The notes under the pieces: model-generated
What the model was told of the DNA's origin: nothing
The model's database searches: none
The model's input: only the letters and a program-made list of their open reading frames with translations
Made by a program: the position numbers and the translations under genes
NCBI GenBank assembly: GCA_903843285.1
Contig: CAIMPC010000057.1
Span: 6,456 to 70,455 of the forward strand
Direction: 5' to 3'
Length of the DNA: 64,000 nt
Origin: Candidatus Omnitrophota bacterium
Lineage (GTDB): Bacteria; Omnitrophota; Gorgyraeia; 2-01-FULL-45-10
In this document: one piece after another, positions 6,601-49,181 of the stretch
How positions within the stretch are numbered: the stretch's first letter is position 1
Layout of the letters: every line of letters begins with the position of its first letter

Positions 6601-9600
6601 GCGGCCTTATCGCTACCAGCATTGGCTTCGCCCTTGCCTATGGAGATGCGGACGGTTATTAATTGTGAGGAGAATTGTTTTGCGAGGGATGGCACTTTCT
6701 TAGATAAAATCTCATTGACTGTCTTCTTTAATATTGCCAGGCTTAGGTTATTTACTATATCATACAGAACGGCGGGGGCTTTATCACCATAGCTATCTAC
6801 GAGCGCTGATCGTCCTTCAGGTGTCAGGGAATTAAATAGAACTTCTACTAGGTCGGATTTTTCTTTATCAGCCCTTTCTTTAATAGCGTTTGCTTTAACG
6901 CTATTGGTTTCTTGCTTGGCTTTCTCTATTAAGCTACGGACAGCTATTAATTTTAAGGAGAATTGCTTTGCGAGGGATAGTGCCTCATTGGATAGGATCT
7001 TATCGACTGCCTTCTTTAATTCTGCTAAGTTTAGCTCATTTACCTTGTCATATAGAATGCTTTTGGCGGATTTTTCATCACCATAAACATCGGTGAGAGC
7101 TAATTGTTCTTCAGGTGTCAGGGAATTAAATAGAACTTCTACTAGGTCGGATTTTTCTTTATCAGCCCTTTCTTTAATAGCGTTTGCTTTAACGCTATCG
7201 GTTTCTTGCTTGGCTTTCTCTATTAAGCTACGGACAGCTATTAATTTTAAGGAGAATTGTTTTGCAAGGGATAGCGCCTCATTGGATAGGATCTTATCGA
7301 CTGCCTTCTTTAATTCTGCCTGGCTTTGTTCATCGATCTTCTTATATAGATACTCCTGGGCTTTAGTAATGTTCTGGTTATTGATGTCGAGAAGAATTGA
7401 TTGTTCCTTGGGTTCCAGGGAATCCCATATTGTTATTGTTAAGGCAGATTTGGCCTTATTAGCTACTTGCAATTCTTCATCATTTTGAGCTTTGGCTAGA
7501 GCAAAACGCACATCTCTGAGAGAATCAGCAAATCTCTTTGCGAGGGATAATGCCTTCTCAGATAAGATCTTATCTGCTACTATCTTAGATTCTTCCAGAC
7601 TCAGGTCTTTTACTTTCTTATATATAGCCTTTTTGGCTTTAACTTCATCATAATCATACTTATCCAGAAGCGCCCGCTTCTCGTGACTGTGTAGCGCATT
7701 CCATATATATTCTTGATCGATTGTATTCCGATTACTCTGCACTTCATCTGCATTAACACTGCCTGGACGGATAAACCAGCCAATCCAAGGCACCAAACAG
7801 GCGACCAGCTCTCCATAGCCTGCATAATGCGTATTCTCGTGAAACTCAATATATCGCCGTATAAGTTTGTGTAAGACGTCGAATCCCGATGACTTCTTTA
7901 TTTCTCGCTTATTATCTAAGGAGATCTCAACCCACGCAATAGGCCCTGCACGTCCATGCATTGCCTTATTAATTTGTGCTAATGCTATCGCCTTTATTAA
8001 TGCATGGATCAAAAGATAACTACATAATACGCCAACTGCTACAAATACTCGGAACGTTATGTCCTGCCAACCATAACTTAGTGCCGCTATACTAAAAAAT
8101 CCAGCGCCAAAAAGCGCCTCAAAAATAGCCGTACGTACGATGAGATTCTTATCAAATGGCTGAATCCTTCCACCAAATTGATTTATTAATCTCTTGGCTA
8201 TTTCCTTCAGTACTTTATCTTGAGTCTTAGATAAGTTTGGCCGAGCGCCACCCGCAAAAACTCGACCCAATATTACAAAATATATCTCGTAAATTATACC
8301 TATAATACTAGCAAGGATACCAATTACAGCACTGCTTGTTACCATGGAGGCAAAAAATACAACAAATTTTGTGGGCAATCTCATCTGTCCCTGCCACGAT
8401 AGCGTGCTCATCACTCCACTAAATCCGCCATCACTCATAGGAACTGTAAAAGGTATAACACCCACTAAATGCCTCAGGACATCCACGGGGAAGAATGATA
8501 CCCATATGCTTATTATTAATATTCCAACACCAATCCCATATGTCCACCATTCCACACCTCGGGTCTCGTAATATTTCCCATTAACTTGCTTGCCTATTCC
8601 GAGCATCCAGCTCCATCCCGCAGCAAACATAAATGAGGCTAAAATGCTGGAAGTGCGCCACACGGCATTTGTCGATATAAATCCTGAGAACGATAAGGCA
8701 AATATGACAGGGATGGTATAAGTAACTATCTTTAATGCGGTATCAAATTTCTTAAATTCCGATGGCCATTTCTCCTTATCGGCACCATTTTTGATGGCAT
8801 AAATATACATAGCAATATTCGCAGTTATAATGGTTGCGATTATACCGCAACTTAATACAAAGTACGTTCCATTTAACTGAACTGCCAAGGAAGCTATATA
8901 GGGAATATATGACACGTACGCAGACAATATAACGCTGAGTGAAATAAGGATCGTCCACTTGAACATCTTTAGATAATAACTAATCATCGGATTGCCCTCA
9001 CCAACTACGGCGGCATTCCATACCAATGTGGGAGGCTTAACGTCCGGCAAAAATATATGATAGTATACAATCTTTAGGACCACGGGTAGTTGTCCAACCA
9101 GTAGAATTGGTTTAGTTACAATCTTCGTCAGGAAAATAGTGGTCGAGGCAACGAATTCGACCAGTCCTTTTAATAATTGCAAAACAAACAGGCAAGTTCC
9201 CTTTATACGCCCGTGCTCTTTGTATATCTGATTTCGCTCGGACGTGAATAAGCTTTTCAGCTTCGCTAAAGCAGGGAAAAATTTTGGACTGGTTAACAAT
9301 ATAATTATTGTTAAGAACGCAAATTCCCCGATTAATGGAAATAACATATCGAGGCTACCCGGTATAAACATAGCCTTAAACATGAGCACTAATTGAATAA
9401 GCCATATAAACTCTCCTAAAAGCCCTCTCACCACAAGATCTGACTCGTATCTGTGCCCCGGAGATAATCTGGGAATCCACATCTCGCCTGATGCTTCTCT
9501 AGCATTAATCCTATTACTACCTTCTTTAAATAACGATCTCAGAAGTAGGGTGCTTACCACCGCTCCTCCGAAGCACCATCCGATCATCCACAGCAGGGAC

Positions 9601-12600
9601 GTACCTATCAAGCCTACTATTACGGCCATTGGAATAGCGCCTGCTAAAATAGCGGCCGTCACCGGATAGTCTCGAATAAATGGTACAATCCTAATTACGA
9701 ATATCTGCGGCAGATCGAATACGTACATCCATCGAGTTGCTTCTCTGCGAGCCTCCTGACCATAGTTAAACATCGGATCTTCTTCGATGACGACTCTATC
9801 TAAATATTTGCACTTACCGCTCAATATAGTCAATACTTCGTCTTCGCTCTTGGGTAGTATATCATCAGTAGCTTTGAGATAGTTATAGTATGCCCATACC
9901 TTTTGGTAGGCATTAGTCGTGATCATGTCTCTGTAAAAATCCTCATTTCGGTAAGCATATTTACCGGGGGCGCGCAGTGAGTCTTCGATGATATATTGAG
10001 CCTGCGCAACATGCCCCAACATCGTCTGAGGAAAATCTTTCATAATATTAGAATGTATTGTGGCGTGCACATCGCTATAGATCATTTTTCCACGGAAGAA
10101 AGATTCCGTATTACGCCTATCGGCCATTACAGAAACTAGATACAAAATTCCCTCGCCTTTATGATCAGCCCTTTCGGCATAGCTTATTAAGTTACCCGGA
10201 TCGTATACAAGAGTATTTTTAATTCTACTTTTGCGCATTAGAGGAGGTATGCTCTTATCATTGATACTCTCTTGTCGTATATTCCTCAAATCATCAGGGT
10301 CGGCAGGATCGCCGCCCAATGTTTCGACTATAGGATTCATCCACTCATTATTCAAAGTAGGCTGATCCTTATTTTTAGCTTTTGAAATATCAGGGTCTAC
10401 ATTATATCTCGGATCGATCTTACAATATTCATCATCATCTTCGCGGAGCCATCTCTGCACAGAGTAGTGAGTAGGCGGTTTGGTCATTTTTTGTCTACGC
10501 AGATGTACGTAAACGCGTTTACGTACATGCTCAGGCATGGCATCCAAACGTTCTTGCACGAGCTTTAGTGTTGCCTTATAATGCTCCTCACCCTCTGTAC
10601 CAGATCCGCCAAAGACCTGAATCAATAAATCAAAATATAGATTATAATCCCTATTACCGTTGGGATCGCGCGCCTCTTCCATCATTTTCTCTACAGCCCC
10701 GATTCCTTCAGCGGTACCATCACCCATAACAGAATTGAAATTAGGCATATCTTTCAAAACCCCTGTCGCCAGATCTTTCTCCTTTCTCATCGGGAACGCC
10801 ATATGGATCATGGTCTTCTCGTCATCTGGAATTTTGCCCTGCTCTGTTATGTCGGTGCGCCTAAACTCCGGTTCCAATAGAGATCTGCCAGGCTTCACTA
10901 CATTATTGAATAACATGATACCCGCAGATGACAAATACACGCCCGGAATGATAGCTAAAAGCCACCAGGTTGTAACTGTATACAGAATAAGGTTTGAGGC
11001 CATAAAATTATTATAGTTATAGCAGGCCAGGATAGTAAGCACGAGGGCCGCCGTAACTACTGTGTTGAACCAATGATATAGAAAATGCTTTTGTGTTATT
11101 GCCAGCGACTCTACCACATTCTCCAGCCTTCTCTCGGCTTCCACCGGATCCAGCAATCTGGCGACCTCGTTCATCTTAAGATGCTTGGTAAGCAGTTCTT
11201 CATCTGCCGGCGGCTCTGCAGGTTTCGGCTTCAGTCTGGCAATAATCCCATCATTATAGCGTTTCTTGCCTAATCCCGTTATATATGTGCCGACAACCAC
11301 TAAGACCGTTAACACGAAAACAGAATTAAGATTGCCCCATCTGAACTTTTCCCAAAGATATTGTCTGAACTTTTCGAATTTCGACCAGTTTTTTTCTCTA
11401 ACGTATTTTGGGACCCCTCCTTCTGACACCTCTCCCCTAAGTCTGCCTTCCACTCTCTGTCTATCCATCGCGTTTATGGGGCGGGTAACGATCCTTTCAA
11501 AGGAATCCCTGTCATATTTAAGTGTTTCGAGACTGCCCAGGGTGTTAGTAGCTCCCATGACCGCATTTTCATCGAGGTATGTAAAGAGTTGCTTCGTTGT
11601 TATTTCCTGCGCAATATCATAGAGACTCCTCGGGGAGCTTGTCGGATTTTGCACTGACTTCGCGTTCTCTATTCTGACGGCTTCCGCTATTTCATTTTTT
11701 AAAGCAATGGCCCGCGCCGTCAACATCTTCACCACCGTCGGATTAATATCTTTCCTTAATATCTCGTGAGCGATATCCGCAATCTCTTTATCGTTCGCAA
11801 TGCCGACTCTCTTCAGCTCCGGTTTAATAATCGCGATTATGCCCGATATGCGAATATTATGGACGCATAACTCCGTTATAATCCTCTCGGATATCTCCTG
11901 AGCGTCGGCCTTAAGACCGTCCTCCTTCATCAGGGCTTTTTTCACATCGTCTATACTGTTTATTCTGTTCCCGAGACTGTCTCTGATTCTGGTAGATACT
12001 TCATTCACGCTGGCATCTTCCACTATGGAAGGCTCGACACGGCTAAGATAAGGACGAATAGCCGATGCTATAGGCACAGTATCGTATTCATCTACCACCA
12101 TATCGATTTGCGCGGGAGCCGAAATTATATGGTGCGCTGAAAGTTCCGCGGCTATATTATGGATAACTGACTTGTCTATGCCTATCCCCTCCAAGCGCGG
12201 GGCAATAGACTGGGCCAAGGCATCAACCTGAGAAGCATCTCCAATTTTAAAGGTATCAGATTTTTCAATAAGCCCTACTTTGAACCACGTATCCACCAGA
12301 TATAGAACATCCTGCATGTCTACCTTCGGATCTACTATGCGGGCGGATGCAGTTGCATCCATTATCATTTTATACGTATCTTTAGTTCTATCTACGAGAT
12401 TCCTTATATCATCCTCTCCGAGGCCACTCATAACAGCGTTCGTTGCCAACTTACGCGTCTCATCGTCAGTAAGATATATGCCCAGTTCATTAAATTGGTC
12501 CTTCGTAAGGCGAGATAACCTGAGAACTTCTTCCAGTAGATTCATCTCGATCCCGATATGGTTTTTGAAGGACCATAGACCAGCTTCATTCTTCAAGTCC

Positions 12601-15600
12601 TCAAGCCCCCGCTTCCTTTCCGGACTTAAACCGGGGACCTTTAACTTTGCGGCAATATAATCTATCTTCTCCTTGCGTATGCTACGTTCCATGTCTTCTC
12701 TATGCCGTGAATACATAAAGACCGCCTTCTCGCCGATGCTCTCGGCGAGAGTGGATATATTAGATTTATCATCTGTTGTTAATTGAGCGTCCCCCTTGCC
12801 ATAGGCTTTCTTATATATCTCGCGCACCTTTACCGGTAACACCTCGTAAACAAGTATAACGCCGTCTTCATCATATCCCAACCCCGTCATCTTATGTAAT
12901 AGTATCCCCGCTTCATCTTCATCTATCGGAACATCCAAAAGCCGCGCCTTTTCCATCAGACTTTTTAAAACTCTCTCTTTGCGCGCAGGATCCTTCTCGA
13001 TTACGATAGCCTCCTGTATCTTTTCCTTCCTCTCATCATTTACCTTGCGCTCGTAATCGACTAATACGGAATGCTTCGCGTTAAATCTAACATATATATC
13101 TTCCACCGCCTCTTTCTTCCGCAGTTCCGCCGCGATAAGGAACGTTCGTAGGCTTGGAGTAATAACTTTGTCTAATTCTTCGCATTTAGTATCGATAACG
13201 CCCAGCGCCTGTTCCATTGCTATGGATGGATTTCCATCACAGATAATGCGTCCAAGAAACCCCCTAAACGACTTAGAGACACTTGACTGCCCTTCAATAA
13301 GCTCACCTTTCTTCGCCGCCACCTGAGCCGGAGTCAACTTAAACGGCATCAGATCGGATGTCAATGCTTCAAATTCTTTTAATTCCGAAACCGCTCTTCC
13401 GGGAGAAGGAAATCTTCCAAAATCGATCCGCCATTTTCGTAATATAAACGCTATATCATCGTATCTTTCCGATCCCAAAAACAGCCCCATAAATGCCAGG
13501 TCTGCTTTGAACGCAGTCTCAAATTTTTTATGGGCCTGGAATTTTTGCACCCAAGTCATCAATTCATCGCTCTCAAGCCTTAATTGAGAGAGTACAGGAA
13601 ATATATTTTCCCATCCGATAAATGTCTGCATGTTCGCATAATTTTCTCCCTGCGCCCATGCTATATCCTCAAATGTGTCTTTGATCCATTTAATATCATT
13701 AAACCCCTTCCCTGCCTTCCTGGATTCCAGCGCTTTAATATACATACGCGCCACAAAGCCTCTCCTTTGTCCCGGAGTGGAAAGAGGTAGAGCTGCTTTT
13801 ATCTTATCGACCAAGCCGGTGCGTATCTTGCCTTCAACGTCTACTCGTTTAAGGTTATGGTATCTATCAGCATACCCAGATATCCTAATGTTGCTCAATC
13901 CATTTACATCCATCAGATTATCGACAAGAGTTCTCGTATCAAATACGGGCTGTGTCATCAAATACAGGAAGGCTTTTAACCTGTCATCAGAAAGTTTCCC
14001 TATATAATCCTTCATCAAACCATCCGCTATAACAGACGGAAGCTCCTTCTCCTTTTTCGTGTAGAGGGATTCGTTCAATATAAACGATCCCATAACTTCC
14101 TTTTGGTACCTCTCTCTTTCGGCCGTTTCCACAAGGTTAGACGCATCGGACATATTCAACCTTACAGGAGCTCCCAGTTCATCTCTATTATGTAGCATAT
14201 ACACAGCCTGAAGGTACATCTCTGCTGCCGTTTCACGCACCAACCCCCTGGTATCGATAGTATATCTCTTTCTGAACATGTACTTCATACCTTGCGATAT
14301 AGCCTCTCCAAAGGTGACATCTTCATTCATAAGGCCTTCTGTGGCCTTACCTTTCGGGCCTATATTCGATCCGTCAGAAGCTTTGGGGAGGCCTTTGATG
14401 TAATCATAGGCGGTAATAGCATCTTCTTTTTCCACTCCTGCCCCATCATGTATTTTTATTTTCACTGTCTCGCATGCATTATCCCTAAGACGGTTGGGGT
14501 GTCGGCTATGATCAATTTCATTGAGCAATTCCTGGCCGGCTATCAGGCGTATTTTCTTAGCATAAGCCACGTTTTCAAACAAGGCATCGACTGTTAAAGC
14601 TTTCCCGGTTGCGAGCTCATAACGAGGCCCATATTCTCTGATGGCTTTTCGTACCGCCTTTGAGAAATACGATAGTCCTTTTGCGTACACCCACACATTT
14701 ACATCATACTCTTTGCTCCATTTTCGCGAGGCGTCATGGACCTGCTCCCGCAGTGAAAAGTCTTCATCCCTGTATGCTTCAATCTTTTCCTTTAAAGCAC
14801 TGAAATCAATAATTCCATTATTGAAATTGTCAATATCTCCCTTTAGTTCGTCTGCATCGATAACTTGTATGGCAAAATATTTAGCCTCAGCCATCGCCGC
14901 GCCTTTTTGGAATATCTCTTCGGCGCTCTCTAACATATACCACGTATCTATATGCTTAAGGAATTTCTGTATGCGCTCCATACCTCTATCTGTAGCAACA
15001 GCCTGGAATAGTATCCGCACAAGGAGTTTGTTTACGGCATTTCCATTCGAATCAAAGAAGTCCTTCCAGCTTTCCGGCTTTACTGTAATGACCCTTCCGA
15101 TAGCCATTAGAATTCCGTTCTTCTCTCCTTCATCGAGAGGAAGATACTCCCCTACACTCCGTTCTAGATTAGGCATTACTATAGTATATAACTTTACTAA
15201 ATTCCTGCCGCTGGCTTCATCCGGCACTTTTCCATTTCTGTCGAAATAGCCTGCCCACGTCCTGGGTTTAACCATAAGATCGATCGCAATAGCTATCCTG
15301 CGGCCCTGGGCATCAGGATCATCGCCTATAAGTTCTTTTATCCCTAACTTTGTAGCCTCTAATTCGATCGTATGCTCACACTCATATATCTGGTTAACAG
15401 CTTCCGGATTTATAATTGCCCCTGTCATCTGAATCCACTTATTCTTTACCCACGCGGATTTTTTCTTCTTCGCCTCCATATCCATGGACGCGGACATTCT
15501 GCGGCCTTCTGATACAGGATCATCGCCCTTGAACTTCTCAACGTTGCATCTTACGGCTTCCAGAGCAAGCTTATCCGTAACGCCATAAATGTGGTTTACT

Positions 15601-18600
15601 TCACCGGCATTTATTGTGATAGGTTTGCTGGGCCTGGATTCATCTTCATATATCCATTTATTCCTCACCCAGACCGACCTCTGGGCCTTTGCGACTATAT
15701 CCATAGCCGTAGTGATCCTGCGCCCCTGGACTATCGAACTGTTCCCGGCGAGTCTATGAATATTCTTATTCTTCGACTTCGCCAACTCTGCTAACTCAGC
15801 ATTGATACGTAATATATGATTAACGGCATCGGCGTCTATAATTATAGGTTTGCCCGGCCTGGATTCATCTTCATATATCCATCTGTTCTTTATCCATGCG
15901 GACTTCTTCTTATTCGCTTCCATGTCCATAGCTATAGACATCCTGATACCTTTAGAAGTAGCATCTCTACCTAATAGCCCCGGAATGCGCTTTGCTCCGG
16001 GCAAAACAGCTTGCGTAGCGATATCGCCGGCTACTTTGAATATATGCTTGACAGTTATCGCATCTATCTTTATGGTCCTGGCATTGCCATAGGCCGCCAC
16101 TTTGATCCATCCGTTCTTTATCCACGGGCTCTTCGCCTTATTTTCCACCATATCTCTCGCCATTGCCATCGCATTATCTTTTATCTCTCGCCTGGTAAAA
16201 CCAGACTTCTTGAGGGCAAGTTTCAGGCTCGGTAATACGCTCTTAAACAACTCGTTAATATTACCAATGTTTCTTATTCTACCATCGCTGTTAAAGAAAT
16301 TTTTCCAAACAGAAGGATCGACCACCAGATCTCTCGCTATAGCTGTCGCGTAGTCATTTATCTCTTTAGGACTCAGCCCTACCGAGGCAAGCGATCCCTT
16401 TAGATTTGGCAGCACTGTTCCAAATAGTTCAACAACGTTCGCTTTCTGCGCAGGCGTATTTATATTGCCCTCTTTGTCAAAGAAATCTTTCCAGGCCACA
16501 GTCGCATCGGGATCCCCCATGAGGCCAAAGATTGTGGCTGTGATAAAGCCCTGAATTTCGGGATCCCCAGGATTTAAGGGATTCATATTCGCTTCTCTGA
16601 GCGTCCTATTTATATTACTGAAGAACTTATCAAATTTATCACGAAGCGTTATTATTTCCGATGCGCTCAAATTATTATCGCGACCAAACTTAGTCCAGTA
16701 GAGCGAATCTCCGATAGTTCTTATGCTTTCAAACCTTCTCTTCTCATCTCTTATGTGACCCTCTATGAGGGCGCCCATCCCGGGACGTCGATTTATTCTG
16801 TTATTCTCCTCTGCGAGCAATGTATCCAGCCAATTAACCATGTTAGCTTCAGGTAGCACAGATAACTGGTTATCGGACAGGTGCTTATACATTTCACGTT
16901 TAGGATCGCTACTATCAGCCCTAAGATTTAAGTCCTCTTTTAAAGTAACCAGTAAAGATGTTATTTCATCGAGTCTCAATCCAAGTTCTTTTCTGAATTC
17001 CGGATCCTTTGCGGCCTGACGAAAATCCTCTATACTAATCCACTTATTCAACATAAACTGCCTTGCAAGGGAATTAAGCAGGCCTATGTCTTCTCCATTA
17101 TCGCTCGTGGAGACCTTTCTACTATGAAGCCTCTCGGCCACAGGCTGTAACAGTTCTCTCGTAAAAGGCTCCAGATCCTTATCCAGTTTACCCCACTCAT
17201 ATCTATCGTTGTCCCGATAGAAACTGATCCACCATGAAGTGAATTCGTTACGCGCGATGCCGCTTCGCCTGACCATGTCGGCGACAGCATTCGGAGTTCC
17301 GGCCTTGCATAAATTCTTATACCAAACAAAATATTTCTTATCAGACTGGAACTTACCTAACACCTCTTTTCTTGCATCCGCCACATCTATTGCGGTCATC
17401 TTAGCGGATGGGGATACATAGTGAGGGCTTTGTAATGTGGTGCTCATTCTGGCATAATTACTTAACAATCCCATCAGACTGGGATCGACCGCACCTGCCA
17501 TCCCGAGATTTGGATCAAAGAATCTGGAAAACTCTCTGGGTAGCTTACCGTTACCGCCAATCGCTCTCCTCACCCGGGGTAGCACGCTTTCACAGACAAA
17601 TATATACTCATCCAGATACTTCAGGCTCTCTTCTTCGTTTAGGTTCGCCGTAAGCCTATAAGCCTCAAAGCAGGCCGCCAGAGCCTTTATTTTTTCAACG
17701 TCCTTGCCGATGCCGAGGGGCTTCGCTATCATTTCGGATCTTTCGAGAAGCCTGGAGACATAATTAGAATTAACTCTGCTGACAATATCTTCCCATTTTA
17801 GAAGATTTTTACCTGAGGCATCTTCGTTACTTACGATAGTGGATATTTTATCCACCAGAGCGGCCTTTTTGACTGGGATAGCTCTTAATTTTTTAGAATC
17901 TGAATCTGCGCGCTCCTGGCGGCCGACTTCTTCCCACTCAGCATATTTCCTAATCCATTCCGCTCTGGCTTGTTCCGATTTCTCGCGCTTCAACGACTCT
18001 GCTTTTACATCATCGTCGATCGACACTGTGGCGACTCTTATACCATCTGCCTTTTTATCTAAACCAAACCATCTTAGATATGTAATAAGCTCTTCGCTCT
18101 TATGTTTAAACATACCCAGATTCTTATCAAAGTCAGCTTTTGCCTCAAGCCAGTCGAGCCATACCCTGTTATACTTCTCCATGCTCACAGTAGGAGGATT
18201 ATGCTCATACTGATCTCTGATCTGCTGAAGCTCGGCCCATGCTATCTCTTTTCGTTCTCCGGATGATAAAGTTGCGCGATACTGAGCGCTCCAATCATCC
18301 GTTAAGAGGCGCATGTAACTCCTTAAACGCTCACGCGCTAATACGAGCTGGCCGCCGCTCTGATCCGGGGCAAGAGTTTTGGAGTCTATCTCCAGAGAGA
18401 TATCACTATCCTCCGCTCTATCCATGTTTATCTCCGTAACCTTAGGGACATTTTGCGCTTTTGGCTCGTTCAAAAGCTGTAGAATAAACTCAGCGCCTCC
18501 GGATGTCTGTAGTTTCATTAGCATGCTATACGCCAGATCGCTACATACACGCTCGGCTTCAATCTTCTTCTCTTCCAGGTTTCTGATTACATCTATCGTA

Positions 18601-21600
18601 AACTTATAAGCATCGCTCTTTTCCTTAAGCGGCTTTTGCCCTACGGCATCGAGCATCTCTATCTTAATCTTCTCGCTCCTTGCCTTCTCCAGGTCATTAT
18701 TTATATTTTCAATATTCGCCTTAGCCGTACGATAACGGCTGAATAGCGATGCCCAGTCAGCCCTCTCGCCCAGCTCAACCAATCTGGACAATAGCGGAAA
18801 ATTTTCGTCCCGTCTGGCATTCTGTAAATTCTGCCCGTACACTACGCTATCCATGTATGATAGCATCCCGCTTAAGCCGCTGAAACCTGCTTCATAGGGT
18901 AAGCCATCCAGCATATTTATATAGCTTCCCGGGGTATTAAATCGTTTAAACCCGAAGATCTGATTTTCATTAATCTCGACAGCCGTACCGCGCCTCATGG
19001 CCTCTGCCTTATTGTTAACAAGGTAGGCAAGGGCCTTCATCTCATCCGGAAGATTCGTCGCATTCGCCACATTGGTTAATCCGGTAAGCGCATTCAGATC
19101 CAGCCCTGCCAAAGCAAAGCTTTCCTCTAATCGAAGCTTATCTTTTTCAGCTACAGCAAGCCTCTCCTCTTTATCTTTAAGCTCAACGTCGGCTTTTATC
19201 CTGTCGCTTTCCGGCAGACTTTTCTTATCCTTTATCTCATCAAGCTTTCTCCGTGAATCATCACGTTCTTTTACGATTTCAGCTATGGCACGGTTAGCTC
19301 CGGTGAGATTAACCCACTCGCGCTGATACGTGTTTATCATATCTATCAATAAGTTGCGGGATTCTTTAATAGCCTGATTCAGATCGTTTCTCGCAGAGAC
19401 TATAGAATCAGGATCTGCAGGACCCAGCTCCATGAACTCAACAAGGCCTCCACCTGCCTGAGCCACTTTAACCCTCGTCGCAAGGCCGATGATACGGCTC
19501 CTTATAAACCAAATCTTCGCATCGCCATCGTGCCCCCTGGGGAAGAACTTACTCAGGTGATATTTCATATCTTTAAGCGAAAAATTCGGTACCTTAATCT
19601 CGTCTATTGTGATGCTGTATGGGGCCAATATCTCCCCGAGCACCATTTCATTCACTCTATTCTCTTTCTCAGCGGCCTGCAAATCTGTCTTCATACGTTC
19701 TATATCTTCGGTGACGCGAAGTTCATCTCTTAGGCCGGTGTCAAACTTCACTTTAAGATCTAAGTTCTGTTCTTTTATAGCCCTTAGCAATTCTTCTGCC
19801 TTTATCAGCTTATCCTTTATTTGCTTTAGCCTGGTTCTCGATGCCGAATATTCCAGATACTGGCGAAGTATCTGATCATATCTATTACTTAGGGCTATAT
19901 CCTTTTGGGCCTTGGCAACCTCGACATCCTGCCGCATGACTTCAATTTGATCTACAGGCAGGTTAATCCCTCTGGCGCGCACATTATCATACAGTAGCTG
20001 TTTCAGCTCCAGTCGTATACTAGCCCTACTGGTAGCGGCATCGTAATTAAATAAAAGATTCCCGAAGTCACTAATATTTCCCTGATTAGCTACATGGGCA
20101 CGTAATGCCTGCAGTAATTCCGGCGGGTTGACACCATTTTTACGCAAAACCGGCAAATCATGACTTAATCTGTTTTCGATAGCCCTGGAACGCTCAAAGA
20201 CCATCATTTTGTCATTTATCTCTTCGGGCCTGAGTTTTCTGGCATCGATTCCAGCCTTGCCCAAGTCCAAAATAAATTTGTCTTTCCTATTTAAAAGATC
20301 ATTCAATCTGGCCCTTGCCTGCTGAAGTTTATCCACAAGCAATATTTCATCTTCCTGGGAAATAAATTTTTCATCATTACCTTTGATATCCAGTTCGGCC
20401 TGGAGACTTGCGATATACTTATTGGCCGCGGCGATCTCTTCCTGGATATATTTCAGCTGGTACAGGGATATATGGATATTTAAGCCAAATTCATACAAGC
20501 TCTGCTGATAATTTACATATATCGCTTTCACGACATCCGGCGGCTTAACATCCAAACCCCACCCATTCGGCAAATAACCGAATATCTTATTGAGCTCCAG
20601 CTCGGGAGTGCCTGACAGGCCATCGCTGAGGAGATTTTCGAATAGTGATCTATCCTGGTCTGTCTTCCTAATATCTATAGTAAGGCCTGTAGATAAGCTT
20701 TCTCCTCTTAATGCTTTTATAAGCTTCAGGCATTCCTGTTTTTTAAACTTAGCTTCTCTCAGCTTATCTTTAGCGGCAGAGAGCATCCTGGTCGCCTTAT
20801 AACGCACTGCATCAGACGATCTGTGATTTTTGTACATTTCATCGCATCTGGTCTGAAGATCCCCGGCCAGGGCCGTATTTGCAACTTCATCTCTTTCCGA
20901 TTTCTCATATTCCTGATATGCCGACATCATCGCACAGATCAAATCGTTTTCGGCATGCTTACGCAATGCCTCTTCGGGTATGGAACCAATCTCCTGCTCA
21001 GGCATCAGAACGGTTCCGGGGGTAGCCTTGATTAGCGTTACTGTGCCAAGACCTGCATTTGTATATGCCGCATACGGGTCACGGTTACGTTCAAATAGGT
21101 CTACAAAGCCCGGGACGGTCAGCTTATAGTCCCTCATTGCAGTCGCGACCCTGGCTCGAAGATTCTCTGATCTGGGCCGGCCTTGCTCTGAAGATGCAAC
21201 ATTTCTCATAGCATACGTAATGGATTCGTTAAGCATCTGCATATTGGATGCGTTCATTGCAGAGGCCTGATACCGTGATGGATAGGTCACTGAAGGTCTT
21301 TGAGTCAGTGGTGCGACATTCGGCTGAGCTGAGGGCATCGCAACCGGTAATCTAACCGACGGCTGTGCTGATGGTGCTATCCGACTCACCACCGGCACCG
21401 CCTTTAACCCGTCTTTATTGACGACGAGATTGCGGTTTAGCGCGATTTTCTGGCCTTTTTTCATCGGATCTTTTAGGCCGAGAACGGCGTGTAAGAAATT
21501 GGATTGCATATCGGTGGCCGGATTCACATCCTTCTTCATCGTTAGATCTGATGTTAAGCTTATGGATATACTATCTCCTGCCGGCTTAAGTATCATCCTG

Positions 21601-24600
21601 ATCGTGCCGGTGTAGTGCTCGGTATCTACATTAAAGAATATCTGGTAGACGGATTGTCTGATCTTACCTATAGAAGCCTGAGTTATCGTGCCTATGTTCA
21701 TATTTGCACCCACGCTCAAGCCTCTGGCGATAAAAGTCATGTGACCATTACCATCGAAGGCTAATATCTCAGCGCCAGAGAATGTCCTTTGACCAGTCGC
21801 TTTATGGAAGATCTGGATCTGCCCCATATCGTGGCCATTGCGATGCTGGAACCGCGTATATTTTTCAGCTTTATTATTGTAGATTAGTAACGGAATGGGC
21901 ACATTATGATCGGGATCGGATGGTTTAGACTGAACCAGCCAGTCAATGTCAGGATATACAATGTCGGTAGCGTACCCTTGAAGATTCGGTGTTTGCTCTA
22001 CCTTTTGCGTAGATACAGTAACGACCGGTGCCGTTGGTACCCTGGCCGATGCCGCAAGCTTTGCCAGATACCCTGACTGACTATAGCCTGGCGAGCTGAC
22101 TATCGCCTCCAGGCGATTCATGTACCTTTCATTTTGCAATTTCTGATCTGCTACAGGAATATGCTCGTAATCGGAGAATAATTTTCTTAGTGCGCCGTGA
22201 TCTAATATTTTGTCCAGGGCATCAGCCGGTGGTGCGCGTTCTCTCTGCGGCTTCGCCTGCGCCACTTCTCTTGGCGCGGCCGCCACCGTGGTAATGATCC
22301 TGCCATTCGCAGCCTCGTCTACAACATTACCGACATTTCGACCAAGCGTTCTCCATCCATTCGCTCGTTGTGACGAATCTCTCATACGACTGATAGCCGC
22401 AGTAACAGCGGCCGGATCGACCTTTTTACCGCTTCCGATCTCGCCTAAAACTTTCTGTCCTTCCTGAGCATATGCGACCACCGGATAGACCACCATGGGC
22501 ACGGCAATCGCAGACGCCACGGCTACTTTTCCCAGCATGCCTGAGAAATACTCCGAAGTAGCCCGCCCCATCATCTTCTCTATATTCACTCCGTATTTAT
22601 TTATTAGAATCGCCGTCACGCCGATAGCGCTGACAAATAACGCCGTCTGCATCACGCCGCTAAATATCACAAACGCCGCAGGTATCGCCATGGCATACAT
22701 CAATATGTTTCTCGAACTCGGAATAAATGATTCGGCGAAAGTGCGCCAATAGCTCTGCTTGGCAGAGAGTGCCTCCTGCCCTAATTTGGCCGCCTGTACA
22801 AACTGAAATATTATAGCCAGTACACCTATAACTGCCATCGGAACCGATATTAAAGGTGCCACAGAGATTGAGGACAACATACCCGCGGAGCCGAATAAGG
22901 ATGATAAGGTTACGAGTCCTGCGCCTACTATAATGCCGAGGGCGTTTCCTATATACATAGGCCACCTGGCCCTAAAGAAGCCGCGCTCCGCCTCCCTACC
23001 GACGACATTGGCCGCAAGTGATGAAATAGCTATCGCGCCTAATGACACGCTCGTGATAAATAGAGACCCTCCGGCTATCTGTATGGCAAAGAGCACGCTT
23101 ACCGATATCACCATCGCCCTGACGAGGGAGTTCACTCCGGACTCAAAACGAGTGGGAGTTACATCAGTGACTTTACTCAGGTCTTTCCTGAACAAGCCTA
23201 TTAGAATAACATTCGCCAGAAATGCCATAACTGCCGCGCCAAATGCCAGTGGTATTGCAGGAAGGGCCAGAGATCCTACTGCTATCACGGGGTGCGCGAC
23301 TGCCGCTATCAGCGTTCCTGCGGCAGTAAACAAGCCCGGCCCTGCGAGAAGCTGAAGAGCCATGACACCTGTCCATCTAATCAAGGCATTTAAGAAGCTC
23401 CCCTTTCCTACGCCGGCGGTGAACCTCATGAAATCGGTCGTAGATGTATCGAGCTGTCCTATCTTCTTTCCGTAAATCTGGCTAAAATATACCGTTATGA
23501 TGAGTAGCGATGCGGTTGCAACACCTGCGATCACAGGCTGTGAGATAAGAGACTGAATTATCGGATCTAAGAGCTCCTTAGTGAATGATGAGAGGCCATA
23601 TCTGGCAAACAATGTCCCTATACCAAGCACCAGTATTATCGATGCCGCCGTCTTTACAAAACCTTCCGATAGTAAATTCGTAAATGAGTACGGCCTTGTC
23701 TCCTGAATATTTTCAACCTCGCTACCCATGGCGGAGGCCACAATAACGGTGATGAAATCTTTTATATCGCTGATTTTGTTATTGAAATTGCGTGCAAGAA
23801 ATGCCGCATTGGACAGCTCTTTGTCGAACTGGACGAAAGCCCCTTTTAATCCGACCCGAGACTGGCTCGCCAGGTACTCCAGACGTTTTCTCGTGGATTG
23901 CTGTTCCGTCTGAAACTTGCTAAGTTCATCAGTAAGTTTTTTCTGTATAAGGACTTGTAAGTCTGCGATCTTACTATCTAACTCGCTGTCACTCTTCACA
24001 CCGGCTCTGAGACCCTCGTATGAACCCGTCTCTCTTAAGAACTTTACAAATTCATCCTTCGAGGCTGTCATACTAAGGAGATTCAATACCTGCTGTTGGT
24101 ATAAAAACACCTCCTGCTCGTACGCACGTCTCTTCTCATCGCTTCTATTCTTCTCGCTTGCGATCCTATCCCTGACCTCTGCTGTCAGGCTCTCGACGAG
24201 CTTCGTATCGGATCTTTCAATAGCGCCCCTCAACCCTGCTAATTGCTGGTTCAGGAGCTTGGCGTGCTCTTTAAGTGTATTCTCATCGAGCGAGAATAGG
24301 CCCTCCCACGATCCTTTGTTAGTTCCTCTGTCACCGCGGCCTTGAGTCTGAATTTCAAATGCCTCTGATTCATCGAGATATGCAGATATTACATGCAGTC
24401 CTGGAGCTAATTGATCGAGAGGTGGAACTTCCTCTCCTTCCGAACCATCCTTATTAAGGAAACGCCCTCTTATAGTAATATCTATTCCACGGTGCGCAAT
24501 ATTTGTGGTTATCGTAAGTATGTTGCCATAACCGGCAATGCTTATAGCGCGATTAAACTCTTCGGCATTGCCTCCATTAGCTTCATTAATTATTATTCCA

Positions 24601-27600
24601 CACTCGGCTAATTTGGCTTCGCAATTCTCCTCTATATAATTTCTTAACTCTTTTACTTCCGCGTCTGATTCAACCTTAAGCAATATAGGCTGTCCATTAC
24701 CCAGTCTTTTATTCAACCTTTCGGCCAGCATAGTCCATTTATCTTCCCTCGTCTTAAAACCCGTATGCCCTGCGCTCTTATCCAGAGTCTGGGACAAACC
24801 GGCTATAGTCCTGACCTCTTTGCCGGGGTATATGCTCTCAAAACGTTTCGCCTCCATAGTTCCACTGGCGCCGGCGTAGTCGGTAATGAGATCTCTATTC
24901 TTCTCAAACTGTTCTATCGTCATCGACGCAAGCGTATATGTCTCTGGGCTAACTTCATCTACACCTGCCATTATCTCTATGGCCTGCTGTAACCCCTCAC
25001 CAAAATTCATTCCTACTTTCTTCGCGCCCGTATGTTCATCTCGAACATATACTTTGCCGTCTTCAAAATAGTACTGAACACCTATCGAATAAAAAAGATG
25101 GGCTTTAAGGGCATCTATCGCGAAATTCTCCGAGTTTTGATTAATCAGCTCGGCAAGCTTCGGGTTATCTTTTGCATATTTACCTACGGCATTTCTGAGG
25201 GCGCCATGAGCTTTATCGGTCAGGGATACTTCCTTGGAACCCTCCGGCACATAAAACATACTCTTGTCCGTTAGTAGCGTGTCCCTGACTATTTCGTCTA
25301 TGGCCCTTCGTACAACTATTCTATCCTGCCAATCCTCTAACTTATCGCCCGAGATTACGCAGGGGGTAGCTGAGCCAAACACCAGCATTAGATCGGTCTC
25401 GTCACTCAGTGAGAAATATTTATGGTTATTCATAGCCTTTCGACCGATGCCGAGGCTCTCTTTCAGATGACGATGAACGAACCTGTCCCACTTCCCATAT
25501 ATAATGGCGCATCTATCAAAGACCTCGTCTGCCGTAGTCTCTTTTCTGACGCCATTCTCAAATATAACGCCCATTTCTTCGACCTTACCATCATCTGTAA
25601 CGTGCGGAAGTATAAACCCAGTGACAACATCCTCCCCGCAACGGCTCAATACATCTCCGATATTATCCTTTTCCATGGCCTGCGTGGTCAGCGCATCTTC
25701 GTGTGTCTTTATAATTACCCTTTCGCCCCTCTCTCTGAATCTCGATAGCGCCGCTCCAGCTAAAGTGATAGTCTTGCCACCGCCCGTCCTTAATTCTGTA
25801 AATCTGCCTTCCTTTAGCTCCCTCATTGCCTCGATCTGACCGGGCCTGTAATTAGAATATCCTGTTTCTTGAAGTAATCTGGTTTCGATTTCGTTAGGGG
25901 TTAATTCGATGGGCTTTACGGCCTCTGGAATGATTTCTTTCGGTTGCGCTTTAGCTTTAGGCGGGGCAAGGATACGAGCGGTGGTTCTTTGGGCATTCAA
26001 TAATAACCTCGCGATCCCGTCATAAAGCTTGATGCCGGCTATAACAAGTCCTGCCATAGCTGTACCTATCGCCGTGGCTAGCGGGAAGTAGCTTATCACC
26101 GCGCCAATGCTCGTAACTAACGGCGCGGCCACTAACGCTAACACAGCCAGACCTGCGGCGCCGAACAATACGAGGCCGACATTACCAAATCCCCTATCGC
26201 CCCTGCCTCGGCTTCTTGAAATGTAACGACCAGGCGTTCGTGCGGGAGTTTGCTTTGCCCTGAGTGCTTGCACAGCCTTAACCGCAAAGAACGGTAGAAG
26301 CAATAAAGCAATTGATGTAATCCACGTAACGGCACTAATGAAGGATAGAGTCCAGCGTTGATTGAGATATGCGATGCTGAGATTCTTAAGCGGCACATTT
26401 ATACGTAATACTTCTTTATAGAATTTGCCTTCAGCTTCAAACGTAGCCCTCTCAAATGACGGAAGATCTCTAAAGATCTCTGTAAGATACCCGAGAAGTT
26501 TCAGATATAACTCTCCATAGCCTTTGGCAACATCTCCCCTTCTATGGTGTACGGACTCGTGGACCAGAACCCCTATATTACTTACCGTACTGTTCTCTTT
26601 TCGTAGCTCTATCTTCGCTCCACGCGGGTCTTTAGCTATCCATCCGAAGAAACTGTCACCGCTCGTAGCCCCGGAAAACCAGTTAGTGCTTACCAGTAAT
26701 ATGGCTACATTATTTTTCTCGAGGTATAAGTAGGTTTCCGGATCGAATACCGATGTGGCAAAAAGAATCTTTTGGAGTTCTTTGTTCGACTTAGATTTTA
26801 TGTAATTTGGCAGGCTTGCCTTATCAACATTTTCCCATACGCTACTGACAATGTCGCTAAACTTCTCGATTCTATTTTGTGGCATATTTCTAAGGCTAAA
26901 ATCATCATTATCTCTCAACACGAGTGTGCCGTTCACTATAGCTGAACTGAGAAGTAGCGGATCGGCAGAGGTATCGCCTTTGATCTTAAACTTTTTGGCG
27001 ATATCCTGAAAATAGTCCTTATTTGCCATATCTGCGAAGTATTTATTTGCGGCGTCGCTGAGCTTCTTCTGATCGAGGGCAAACTGACCCGAAGAGATCG
27101 GAATGTTCGCCTTTGATTCATCGTGACTAAGAACGGTTTCTTTGGAAATTGCCGTAGGCGTGGCTTCGACTTCGCCGATCTGTGTCTTTTCGCGCGTAGG
27201 GCCTGCCATCGCTTTGGCGGTATTATAAGAGGAAGCTACTTGGGAGGTTGAACCGCAACCGGAGATAAAAAGTGTCGCTCCGATAACCATAGCAAGAAGT
27301 AGGGTATGGGACTGTTGCGAAATGCCAAATTCCGCGTCATTCTGAAGCGAAGGGGCCGAAGGGTGAAGTAAAGAGCGTCCGTCATCCTGACGAGCAGAGC
27401 GAGGAAGGATCTCGTTTTTAGATTCTTCGGTCGACCGTTGGCCTTCCTCAGAATGACGGAAGTTGTCTTTCGCAACAGTCCCCGGATTGAGAGCTGTGCG
27501 CTCAAAAGTAGCGACTTTCTCATCAATGTATTCTTTTGTCCGGGCTTCCAATTCTAATTTAGTCTTAAGTTCTTCAGCAGTACTAGGCGGATCTGCTATC

Positions 27601-30600
27601 CAATCTCGTAGATGTAAATACTCGTCTTCACGTATACTAAATAACTGTGGGGATTGAGATGACTTGGCTAATTTATCAAGCAGATCCAAAATATTTTCCA
27701 ACCTTTTTAGATTGCTATCAATTTTAGTAAAATAATCAGAGTCATCCACAAAGCTTATATCTGCGTAGCCTATAAGAACAGCTAGGGCGTTGGGTACATC
27801 ATAATATGATTTGCCCAGCTTATTAAGCGACTTATACAACGCTTTTTTATATCTGGGTAAGTCTTCAGACACAACCTTCTCTCTTACAGGTATACCCCTT
27901 ACTATAAGAAGTATTTTATCTTTATAAACGTTCATTTCTTTTAGTAATTTTTCTATTTCCTCCGCCTTTTTCTTGCCATCCCGTTTTTCCAGTGCTAATC
28001 TTATGTCCCCCACTACTTTACGCATGTCTAACACGGGTTCTCGCAGATCCTTAACTAATCCCCGTGCCAACTCTCGCAAACTATCAACTTCTGCGGCCTC
28101 TTTCGATACTGTCTGACTCGAAGATGGCGGCAATTTCACCTCTGGCGCCGATGGTTCTCCTGCCGCTGATACAGACGCTCCTACGAGCACAGGCGCTGGG
28201 GCAATAGGTGTAACCGGTACAGGGGCTTCGACCGACACCGGCGCCGCCGAGGTAACTGTCTGAACAGAAACTAACGGCTGTATTACCGGTGACTCCACAA
28301 CCACGTTAAAGTCAGTTGCTCCAAATACGGAACCGCACATAGTCATTTCTACTAATCTCGCAACACCATCAGGCGTCATCGCCGCACCCTGAGGGAACTG
28401 AGATGTCGGCGCGATCTTTCCGTCACCAATGCCAAGCTCTTTTTTTACAGCAGACTTAACGCTTTCCTTATCATTACCATTTATGCCTTTTCTCCTGGCA
28501 ACCCTATTAAATTCTTCATCGAAATTACCTTTAGCCTTGGCCCGATTCATCGTCTCTGCGATATCGACTGCGACCGAGTGGAGTACTAGGTTACGCGTAG
28601 CCTGGTTAGAATTCTCGAGCTCAGCCAGGCGATCTTCCACCGTCTTAAGATTAGATATTTTCTTACCGTTACCGGATTTTGAAATTAGATATTCTTCTAT
28701 CTCGCGGCTCGTCGACGGTCTCGTCTTAATATTTGCTATATTGCCATCCTTATCACGCTCTGCCGAAACCGTGGTGTATATAAAATCTGCCTGATCGGCC
28801 ATCGTCTTAGTCTCGATGGCTACATCTTCGGCCTTTATAATGCCCTTAGCCCTAAGCTCTTCGTAGGCATTCCGATAACTCTGAATCCAGAGCTTCTTCA
28901 CGCTCTCGACATCCTTCTTCTCCATCACCGCCTGGGCGAGGCTCGTGGCTACTATATCCTGTATGAAAGACGTCACCTTTCCGGGATTCGCCGCTTCGTC
29001 GCCGAGATACTTATCCGTAGCTACCTGATACTTGCCGCTATCTATCAGATCCGAATAAGGCTCGGTCTTATTAGTCAATATCGCTACATACGGCCTCTCG
29101 CCCTTAGATGCGTCAAACTTCGGCAGGATTACTATGTAAGATGTCTTACTCTTTCTTAGCAGTTCTGTGATGCCCTGCGAGTGATAACCACCGGTGATGA
29201 GCGCCGCCACATTCTGCCGGCGATCCTTCATGGTCGCGATCGTATTGGCCAGTATGGTGTGGTTTCTCTTCTCGGCCGTCTTATAGAAATCCAGCGCCAC
29301 AGGCACATCATTAAATATCTTCTCGAGGTCATATCCTGCGCCGATGGTGACGTTATATTTGATGGAGGCATCGCGTATGAAAGACGCCACAGAAGTAGCA
29401 TTGCAACGATCAATATTTGTAGCGAGGTATCCGAAGTCGCCGTTAGTGAGCTTAAGATCAAACAGGTCTTTTACGAACTCCACGCACTTCATAATATCGT
29501 AAAGTTTCCGCTGGTCATCGCCGGTAAATAACTTCTCTTTTATCTGGTCCTCAAAATTCTTCACTTCTTCAAATATAGCGGTGAGGTCTATGGACTCATA
29601 CAGGGTGATATAGTCGGTGTAGGCTATCAGATTCTTATATGGCTCGGCGTCGATGTGGACTCTCTCTGCCTCTTCCTGCAGGAAGACATAATATTCACTG
29701 TTAGAGATCTTGCCCGTTTTAAACGACAGAGACTTCAGGACTATCTGCTCGAGGTCCTGCTTGGCAGCCTTTTTGCTCAGTGCATCTATAAGCGCATCTC
29801 TCTCCTTATTCGCCCTGTCAAAGCTTATCGTCTTCTCGAGCTTCAGCGACTCTACCAGTTTCGTCAGATTTTCAAAATTCTTATAGTCGACGCCGGTCTT
29901 TGCGGCCAACTCCCTCACCAGGGCCCATCTCTGGGTAAAGGTGATCTTACCATTCTTGTGAAGAACTGAATTTGTGGTAAGATCCTTTAGTTCCTGGGAA
30001 TAGATCTTATCACGAAGGCCGGCCAATGCAGTAAGCAGGTTATCGATATCGCCCTTAATCTCGTTATTTGCTTTATATACAGCCCTGAACTGATCGAGGT
30101 TCTCCCGGTATAGCGGCTTATTTTCTATACCGTATAGGGCGATAGACTTATTGGATGTGATAGCGAAAAATTCGCCTGCTGATAATTTACCGGCGCCCAT
30201 GAAGTGCCTGGCCGTATTCTTTTTAATATTATCGTCAGGGAATGTCCTGAGGATGGATGTATCGACATAGCCCGAAGATCCTTCTATGGCTACGAGATTG
30301 ATGTCATAATTTGTTACCAGCGAATCGAGGACGGAAGCTATCGATTCCTGGGCACCGAGTGACGCGTGGGCATCCTGGATATTGATGATCGTCCTGTCGC
30401 CGGGCGCGGTGTAGACTTCTTTCGTTACAGCGACGTCTTTGGGGACGTTAATGGGGCTATTTACATTGACGGGAGTCTTAAAATTCGGGGTGGCATTCTG
30501 AGCCTTTGACCATATGGGCGAGCCATTCTGCGCCCAGATAAGATCTTGATTTACAAATGTAACGACGAGGAGAATCGCTATCGAGCGTATCCAGATCTTA

Positions 30601-34696: not shown

Positions 34697-34838
34697 GGGA
34701 CTATTGCAAAATGACAAATTCCACGTCATTCTGAACGAAGCCCAAAGGGCGAAGTGAAGAATCTCGACGGTAAATAGATTCTTCGGTCGGCCGATGGCCT
34801 CCCTCAGAATGACGGAAGTTGTATTTCGCAACAGTCCC
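34697..34838. repeat. Hairpin repeat element copy 5 (full length with terminal inverted repeats), between rpoN and rubrerythrin.
   Basis: GGGACTATTGCAAAATGACAAATTCCACGTCATTCTGA ... TCAGAATGACGGAAGTTGTATTTCGCAACAGTCCC. Confidence 0.6.
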
Positions 34839-36213: not shown

Positions 36214-36264
36214 AACGCGCTCTTTTCATCTACAGCGTTTAGCCAGACAGAAGCTTAGTATAAG

Positions 36265-36338
36265 GGGCTGTTGCGAAATACAACTTCCACGTCACTCTGA
36301 ACGAAGCCATCGGCCTCCCTCAAAATGACGGAAGTTAC
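36265..36338. repeat. Hairpin repeat element copy 6 (short form), between the activator gene and rpoN.
   Basis: GGGGCTGTTGCGAAATACAACTTCCACGTCACTCTGAACGAAGCCATCGGCCTCCCTCAAAATGACGGAAGTT. Confidence 0.5.
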
Positions 36339-38349: not shown

Positions 38350-38362
38350 AAACTTTTTCCGG

Positions 38363-40744: not shown

Positions 40745-40953
40745 CTTTTTTTATCAACTTAGGCGTACTTTCGCCCCAGCCTCACATACAAACAGCCTGG
40801 CATAAAACTGCCAGGCTGTCCGCTAAATCTTCTTGCGCTAAATTATTTTTCTTCCGAAGAGTTTCAAGGTCTATTCCAAGCATAAACTCTCTTTCGTTAG
40901 GAATCAATATTCTGCTCCATTTTGTTAACATTGTCAATATTTTTCGTCTACTA

Positions 40954-47739: not shown

Positions 47740-47742
47740 CTT

Positions 47743-49179: not shown

Positions 49180-49181
49180 TT

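Follow-up and report, generated by a model that had tools for sequence, protein, structure and literature searches.

A 64,000-nucleotide stretch of a Candidatus Omnitrophota genome (contig CAIMPC010000057.1, positions 6,456 to 70,455; hereafter the window, whose numbering is used throughout) was analysed and found to contain a giant open reading frame (ORF) that carries, near its N-terminus, an HExxH domain and a SecA-like motor set among transmembrane (TM) helices. The ORF listing and its translation indicated that the giant ORF lies on the minus strand at 633..30692, starts with ATG and runs for 30,060 nucleotides without a stop, encoding 10,019 amino acids (aa). In a first-pass annotation the interval 24300-26570 had been read as an HExxH protease behind a putative lipoprotein start, followed by a SecA-like ATPase. 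This interval corresponds to residues 1375-2131 of the giant ORF and not to separate genes, and the peptides cited from it were all found on the minus strand, in one frame and within this one ORF (Table 1). The plus-strand ORFs of the interval (80-111 aa) are nested inside the giant ORF, and the base composition is even over the giant ORF and the neighbouring genes. According to a hydropathy scan the giant protein crosses the membrane many times, its hydrophobic helices being grouped in five clusters; the first hydrophobic segment, at residues 33-53, is weak. Hydrophobic helices had also been reported to follow the HExxH motif, and they were found there as TM helix 3 and TM hairpin 4-5.

Comparison with Pfam showed that three SecA domains exceed their gathering scores: SecA_DEAD (PF07517; 40.0 bits against 24.6, residues 1604-1948), SecA_PP_bind (PF01043; 42.9 bits against 23.5, E 8.2e-11) and P-loop_SecA, which represents the second nucleotide-binding domain (NBD2/IRA2; PF21090; 31.9 bits against 27, residues 1979-2078), while the generic DEAD and ResIII matches remained under theirs. 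The SecA_PP_bind match is the preprotein cross-linking domain (PPXD), the SecA insert that the first-pass annotation had singled out for checking, and it aligned to the PPXD of SecA in the phmmer comparison, in an alignment with ten canonical SecAs and in hhalign. In a phmmer search of all PDB sequences 25 of 25 matches were SecA or SecA2, the best being E. coli SecA (E 1.4e-27), and the NCBIfam SecA and SecA2 models matched the motor at E 6e-38 to 6e-19. When profiles of 12 family members and of 28 canonical SecAs were compared by hhalign, they aligned with a probability of 100% (E 2e-54) along 483 columns over NBD1, PPXD and NBD2. The AlphaFold2 model of the SecA-like module is of low confidence (predicted local distance difference test, pLDDT, 54), and its top 36 Foldseek matches in the PDB were all SecA or SecA2.

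In the alignment with the ten SecAs the module is 22-25% identical to them and retains the motifs TGxGKT, DExD, TPxxISG, DExTG, GLxQxxE, GxxGT, TNxAxRGxDI, GLHVI and QxxGRxxR; the residues of Walker A, Walker B and motifs III, V and VI are kept family-wide in 12 members that are 27-51% identical. The ATPase at residues 1604-2137 is a true member of the SecA family that has diverged strongly. The earlier proposal that this ATPase is nearer to SecA than to generic superfamily 2 helicases is borne out by the three SecA domains, by the failure of DEAD and ResIII to reach threshold and by the PDB matches. A generic DEAD/DEAH helicase devoid of SecA-specific features is ruled out by the sub-threshold DEAD and ResIII scores and the SecA-only PDB matches, since Pfam domains, PDB matches, motifs, hhalign and Foldseek all point to SecA.

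Judged by its NCBIfam scores, the motor is not an orthologue of SecA or of SecA2, because all of these models score far under their equivalog cutoffs (68-130 bits against 725-1,493): the best SecA equivalog gave 130.4 bits against 814, and the SecA2 models 70-113 bits against 725-1,100, the highest being 113 against 1,085. Departures from canonical SecA were found at both ends of the module and within it. The N-terminal ~85 residues of SecA, its lipid-binding segment, are absent, and TM hairpin 4-5 and a linker stand in their place; at the other end the module runs straight into TM helices, an orphan block of 11 TM segments lying downstream. Stretches invariant in SecA outside the nucleotide site are rewritten, TVNDYL to THEDAL, IDEARTP to VFGSATP and ERHESRRIDNQ to AYLDESEAFEIQ, and the rewritten versions are themselves conserved in the giant family. 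The columns of the SEC-C zinc-finger tail (PF02810), a tail that is common but not universal among SecAs, are empty in the alignment with the ten SecAs.

Following NBD2, ~185 helical residues occupy the place of the SecA scaffold, wing and two-helix finger, the significant match to these being gone. The low-confidence model places there a ~73-residue helix, two short helices and a helix-loop-helix whose loop SRVG is followed by GLKGAF. The family keeps FQTEQQ and a loop of the form G-φ-(R/K)-G-x-(F/L), which resembles the SecA finger loop GLRGY. As modelled, the region may represent the helical scaffold and two-helix finger in degenerate form, the finger being the element that SecA needs for pushing substrate into SecY. 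The 'loss' of scaffold and finger reported for giant proteins may then be a matter of divergence and not of deletion.

Two HExxH motifs were observed in the 10,019 residues, against 0.10 expected by chance from the composition. Alignment of nine sequences of the domain around the first motif, 21-50% identical to one another, revealed that 13 of 286 columns are invariant, including H1378, E1379, H1382 and E1414; other invariant motifs are MPxxR (residues 1270-1274) and LPxY (residues 1294-1297). The AlphaFold2 model built on this small alignment is confident (pLDDT 87.3, predicted template modelling score 0.83) and consists of an N-terminal helical part, three short strands, the HExxH helix (model residues 170-186), a further helix, a helix at 213-230 that is opened by the invariant Glu, and the helix of TM3. 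An HExxH with a downstream Glu at a helix start is the classical gluzincin signature, and the order of elements in the model is what a gluzincin core looks like. The HExxH is a conserved and probably functional site, as its invariance suggests, and the HExxH…E domain is a new family, here limited to Omnitrophota and other PVC-group bacteria, that the protein-family databases have missed.

Two observations concern other histidine motifs. The second HExxH of the giant protein, in HENTHYAGYGE, has the form HExxHxxGxxE with metzincin-like spacing and a Glu replacing the third His; it directly follows the second large TM cluster and has a counterpart, LHEKTHLAGFDEF, in relative P0032. In L001, P0025 and P0031 the sequence YHE(K/R)LHDLLRGHR occurs exactly 217 residues past their first HExxH.

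The putative lipoprotein start was not upheld. The lipobox-like LFISGC is internal to the uninterrupted ORF, whose residues 1-564, at the N-terminus, share 75% identity with the beginning of its closest relative, L001. The hydropathy scan revealed no basic n-region before LFISGC, and Cys1146 is absent from seven of the seven relatives that span the position, in which the hydrophobic helix is kept. The lipoprotein reading was rejected on these three grounds, and the motif, with which a TM anchor ends, was put down to chance.

An exhaustive HMMER search over 1.84 billion representatives returned 18 proteins at E<1e-30, and the giant family surfaced in this search only: word-index homologue searches gave canonical SecAs only with residues 1150-2340 and nothing with the HExxH domain alone. 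The SecA-bearing relatives are 31-54% identical and score 213-766 bits, while canonical SecAs start only at 111 bits; by these scores the giant relatives form a clade distinct from canonical SecA. Nearly all members are pieces of giant proteins cut by contig ends, the longest piece having 5,423 aa. Among ten relatives checked, six bear the name Candidatus Omnitrophota or Omnitrophica at NCBI, and one, a standalone HExxH protein, is labelled "PVC group bacterium". Locus scans with four HExxH-domain sequences identified two loci in genomes and one in metagenomes. The genome scan yielded the closest relative, L001, in a Ca. Omnitrophota metagenome-assembled genome (JAHJHP010000089.1), whose giant ORF is collinear with the giant protein from residue 1 through residue 2812; in addition to the N-terminal identity given above, the two are 49% identical in the HExxH domain and 51% in the SecA-like module and TM block.

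BLAST of the relatives against the giant protein revealed a recurrent order: N-terminal domain (residues 30-620), variable spacer, HExxH domain (1200-1470), TM helices, SecA-like module (1600-2330) and TM block (2343-2745). The N-terminal domain is the best-conserved part of the whole family, being 37-75% identical in P0017, P0018, P0021, P0024, P0029, P0034, P0092 and L001, with L001 at 75% and six other relatives at 37-63%, and no relative of it was found in Pfam, NCBIfam or the PDB; a TraB/Tiki-like fold, suspected from motifs for residues 60-620, was dropped for want of a match in the same databases. The HExxH domain is optional in this otherwise conserved order. In the reverse combination, P0034 (locus L002, 5,101 aa) and the ~550-aa P0036 and P0047 carry the HExxH domain and no SecA-like module; the neighbours of P0036 are unrelated metabolic genes and uninformative. 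P0034 (L002 and L006; CAYSJU010000005.1 and Ga0163203_1000010), which is labelled 'Planctomycetia' and has the N-terminal and HExxH domains, contains four more HE(A/L)xH motifs later in the protein, e.g. TPFHELGHLL, which suggests repeated peptidase-like sites.

The topology was assessed from hydropathy and charge counts only. Averaged over the relatives, basic residues outnumber acidic ones ahead of TM2 (K+R 3.6, D+E 1.3) and, over nine relatives, do so by a wide margin in the loop behind TM3 (11.2 and 4.6), while the flanks that face the HExxH domain are neutral (2.1/1.9 and 2.2/2.1). By the positive-inside rule these charges place the HExxH domain probably on the periplasmic side and the SecA-like module in the cytoplasm, where an ATPase has to be. 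The TM block consists of five helical hairpins and an 11th hydrophobic segment and has conserved motifs of its own. Its loops are alternately basic (net +0.9 to +3.7) and very short uncharged turns, and the sequence after the 11th segment is slightly acidic; the ~3,700 residues that follow (2746-6452) are predicted to be extracytoplasmic.

The best explanation of this arrangement, and one that we hold to be somewhat likelier true than false, is a built-in SecA-like motor serving the giant protein, with the HExxH domain as an optional peptidase. Covalent TM tethers would keep the PPXD-bearing motor at the membrane and substitute for the lipid-binding N-terminus of SecA and for its SecB- and ribosome-binding tail. 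The motor would hydrolyse ATP, as the intact motifs suggest, and push long extracytoplasmic segments of its own chain, or of sister copies, over the membrane by way of SecYEG or, possibly, of the neighbouring orphan TM block. Facing outward, the HExxH domain would serve as an optional peptidase of gluzincin-like type and trim, process or degrade segments that have been exported or substrates from outside. The idea of the first-pass annotation, a self-contained device for secretion or processing, is in this form a reasonable hypothesis, the SecA part of which had been proposed earlier (bioRxiv 10.1101/2023.11.21.568195).

Several results weigh against this explanation. No match to the SecA scaffold and wing (SecA_SW, PF07516) was found by Pfam in the giant protein, and sub-regions of residues 2138-2320 aligned by hhalign to the SecA C-terminal region at E 0.46, 0.25 and 0.17, none of them significant, though the best local match was collinear in each run, falling on the scaffold start or on the finger loop. 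The geometry of the PPXD-NBD2 clamp and of the finger is beyond judgement because the module model reaches no more than a pLDDT of 54. A PDB profile search and Pfam gave no relative of the TM block and no similarity to SecY or a known channel, so that a SecY-like nature of the block is unsupported. In relatives P0017, P0021 and P0092 the N-terminal domain and the motor occur without the HExxH domain, P0017 being without any HExxH motif, so the domain cannot be essential to the job of the motor and the pairing of protease and motor is not obligatory. A strictly cis, co-translational mechanism is disfavoured as a general rule because the SecA domains of other giants are reported near the C-terminus.

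A SecA-like module that does not translocate but works as a cytoplasmic ATP-dependent clamp, chaperone or regulator, for example by holding or remodelling segments of the giant, by gating the 11-TM block for other cargo or by linking its nucleotide state to signalling with the C-terminal RelA/SpoT domain, is unlikely though not negligible. The want of a significant scaffold or two-helix finger match, the lack of SecA_SW and SEC-C matches in Pfam, the replacement of SecA-conserved residues outside the nucleotide motifs (THEDAL, VFGSATP and AYLDESEAFEIQ), the RelA/SpoT region within the same protein and the very long branches described for such domains (bioRxiv 10.1101/2023.11.21.568195) all agree with such a role. 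It fits less well with a PPXD polypeptide clamp that is kept above the Pfam threshold and conserved in the family, with a module that always lies between TM segments and right before the polytopic block, and with very long predicted outside segments that would need a motor. A SecYEG-independent autonomous translocon, in which the TM-tethered motor, with its degenerate helix-loop-helix as a finger, would push the giant's own chain through the 11-TM block as a new kind of channel and the outward-facing HExxH domain would process the emerging chain, would amount to an export-and-processing machine encoded within its cargo; we regard it as quite improbable. That an ordinary SecA, SecA2 or DEAD/DEAH helicase follows a separate lipoprotein gene, the giant ORF being a read-through artefact, is effectively refuted: the LFISGC ahead of the domain and the weak DEAD and ResIII matches would be in keeping with it, but there is no stop in 30,060 nucleotides, the L001 ORF is collinear from residue 1 through residue 2812, the best SecA and SecA2 equivalogs score 130 bits against 814 and 113 against 1,085, the three SecA domains pass where DEAD and ResIII fall short, and the lipobox Cys is not conserved.

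Turning to the HExxH domain, the zinc protease proposed for it stands as to the conserved site, an invariant HExxH and Glu in a confidently modelled, TM-flanked domain, and falls short as to any peptidase family or fold. Up to E 10, no peptidase model of Pfam or NCBIfam, the M48 and M56 models that had been suggested for comparison included, matched the giant protein or eight relatives; no copy of the domain hit any family of these two databases, and Foldseek found no solved structure in the PDB (best E 1.0), so a metalloprotease fold is not demonstrated. A structural or regulatory metal site, or another hydrolase with a novel fold, is therefore a real possibility, if the lesser one; it accords with these null results, obtained in spite of a model at pLDDT 87, and with the only PDB profile match, the snake-venom M12B metalloproteinase 3hdb, being non-significant (E 0.74). 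That the gluzincin signature, with its Glu 32 residues on, is invariant at 21-50% identity, that three short strands come right before the HExxH helix as in zincin cores, and that the weak match is in register with the metzincin catalytic domain over the strands and the HExxH helix argue instead for a true zincin-type peptidase, which we consider fairly probable.

In Omnitrophota, giant ORFs are a common feature (Seymour et al. 2023, PMC10066038). Most of these giants were described as having divergent SecA_DEAD and SecA_PP_bind domains and no scaffold or wing (West-Roberts et al. 2023, bioRxiv 10.1101/2023.11.21.568195); the same authors placed the SecA domains of giant proteins in a long-branched clade of their own, found normal SecA and SecYEG in the same genomes and proposed that the giants export themselves by means of these domains. 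The PF07517 architecture again formed a cluster among 916 long proteins (Nielsen & Lui 2026, 10.64898/2026.06.07.730766), and an HExxH or metalloprotease module beside SecA is mentioned in neither of the two studies. Compared by description, the motor is a further case of the published kind of Omnitrophota giant SecA: the lineage, an ORF of >10,000 aa, the many TM helices, the SecA DEAD and preprotein-binding domains without a wing or scaffold match, the adjacent TM segments and the proposed role are the same. In contrast with the published giants, whose module is C-terminal after TM anchors, the module here lies near the N-terminus (residues 1600-2340 of 10,019); a RelA/SpoT region is present instead of matches to glycosyl hydrolases, dockerin or C39/S8, and no type II/IV secretion-like cluster lies directly upstream. 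New here are the N-terminal cassette with its limits, two orphan parts, namely the HExxH…E domain and the 11-TM block, the topology derived from charge counts and the hint of a degenerate scaffold and finger.

The canonical SecAs (E. coli 2fsf and 5k9t, B. subtilis 1m6n, T. maritima 3din) share with the motor an NBD1 with inserted PPXD followed by NBD2, and the same motifs. The motor differs in being embedded in a 10,019-aa chain and not in a soluble or peripheral 100-kDa protein, and in having no detectable helical scaffold and wing domains (Pfam SecA_SW) and no SEC-C tail. SecA2 proteins are paralogues of SecA dedicated to particular surface proteins, which are often very large. Like SecA2 (PDB 6sxh, 6t4h and 4uaq), which was among the top matches, the motor is a second, divergent SecA paralogue, plausibly for one special cargo; unlike SecA2 it is fused to its presumed cargo. 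The window ORFs that were scanned included no gene for SecY, SecY2 or Asp. The HExxH domain has an HExxH helix, a downstream Glu helix and adjacent TM helices in common with M48 HtpX/Ste24 and M56 BlaR1, and differs from them in being a ~300-aa loop between two TM helices that is predicted to face outward, with no sequence or fold match to them.

The synthesis, membrane insertion and export of proteins with 10,000 to over 100,000 residues by bacteria with tiny cells and genomes is still a puzzle, to which the main published clue is a SecA-derived motor built into the cargo. In this locus the cassette is compact and well delimited at ~2,800 residues, small enough to express, and combines intact ATPase motifs with a predicted topology and a candidate domain for processing.

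Table 1. Positions of features in the giant protein and in the 64,000-nucleotide window.
Feature	Residues	Window positions	Strand	Basis or remark
Conserved N-terminal domain	30-620	28833..30605	minus	shared by relatives
TM helix 2	1131-1146	27255..27302	minus	hydropathy peak 1.84; ends in LFISGC; anchor before HExxH domain
Lipobox-like LFISGC	1141-1146	27255-27272	minus	232 aa ahead of HExxH
Orphan HExxH domain	1200-1449	26346..27095	minus	9-sequence alignment and AlphaFold2 model
LVHESVHH	1376-1383	26544-26567	minus	peptide cited in first-pass annotation
HESVH	1378-1382	26547-26561	minus	
PSFE with Glu1414		26451-26462	minus	P-x-(Y/F)-E, 32 residues past second His
TM helix 3	1450-1476	26265..26345	minus	hydropathy
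Strongly basic loop after TM3	1477-1502	26187-26264	minus	charge counts
TM hairpin 4-5	1503-1556	26025..26186	minus	hydropathy peaks 2.54 and 1.83; tethers N-terminus of SecA-like module
SecA-like motor (NBD1, PPXD, NBD2)	1604-2137	24282..25883	minus	Pfam, PDB phmmer, hhalign
ELRTGGGKTITLAGAA	1633-1648	25749-25796	minus	peptide cited in first-pass annotation
Walker A, TGGGKT	1636-1641	25770-25787	minus	
Walker B, SDETD	1763-1767	25392-25406	minus	
TPCVISG		25347-25367	minus	
PPXD inside NBD1	1798-1906	24975..25301	minus	Pfam SecA_PP_bind
GASGT		24858-24872	minus	
ILTITTNIAHRGIDITIRG	2058-2076	24465-24521	minus	peptide cited in first-pass annotation
TNIAHRGIDI		24477-24506	minus	
QGRGDRG		24324-24344	minus	
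All-helical C-terminal region of module	2138-2320	23733..24281	minus	low-confidence model
Family-specific polytopic block	2343-2745	22458..23666	minus	hydropathy; alignment of 10 relatives
Degenerate repeats W(I/V)(K/R)N(K/R/G)WI…	around 4855-5110	~15363-16130		by eye
Second HExxH, HENTHYAGYGE	7618-7628	7827-7841	minus	
Tandem repeats	~7780-8430	5408-7350	minus	
RelA/SpoT-type region	8827-9145	3258-4214	minus	
39-nucleotide repeat		1977-2015	minus	
39-nucleotide repeat		27420-27458	minus	
39-nucleotide repeat		34776-34814	minus	
39-nucleotide repeat		60328-60366	plus	
39-nucleotide repeat		61763-61801	plus	
Upstream regulatory block		34909-45825	minus	
Three consecutive ORFs		40954-43047		
Gas-vesicle cluster		46936-57678	minus	
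PilM-PilN fusion and PilO		61862-63904	minus	window edge

Near the C-terminus of the giant protein a RelA/SpoT-type HD hydrolase and synthetase region was identified, for which NCBIfam spoT_relA gave E 7.7e-22 and the Pfam models HD_4 and RelA_SpoT scored just under their gathering scores; a (p)ppGpp enzyme within a giant protein is unusual. The giant ORF also contains tandem repeats of 276-294 nucleotides (units of 92-98 aa, 69-92% matches) and, as judged by eye, a set of degenerate repeats.

The genes immediately upstream of the giant gene code for a Der GTPase, a TPR protein, rubrerythrin, sigma-54, an NtrC-type regulator, sensor kinases and a gas-vesicle cluster, and PilM/N/O genes occur only ~31 kb upstream, as a PilM-PilN fusion and PilO. 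The upstream regulatory block comprises sigma-54, the NtrC-type response regulator, a second receiver protein and two PAS/Cache histidine kinases; three consecutive ORFs at 40954-43047 gave no family match. In the gas-vesicle cluster six GvpL/GvpF paralogues (one fused to DnaJ), GvpG and GvpA are accompanied by a CDC48-like double AAA ATPase, an ArsA-type ATPase, an Hsp20-like protein and an AAA_5 (GvpN-like) ATPase. A search of the Omnitrophota paper of Seymour et al. 2023 (PMC10066038) found no mention of gas vesicles.

A dispersed repeat with the 39-nucleotide core CGTCATTCTGAGGnAGGCCAnCGGyCGACCGAAGAATCT, extending to ~90 nucleotides in three copies, occurs five times in the window against 0 copies expected by chance. 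An Rfam scan of the window gave no match, the repeat included. Two copies lie in frame in the giant ORF, where they encode RHSE(E/V)GQRSTEES at residues 1079-1092 and 9560-9573, and two others are intergenic. The repeat resembles repetitive extragenic palindromic (REP) or miniature inverted-repeat transposable element (MITE)-like elements that insert in frame into genes.

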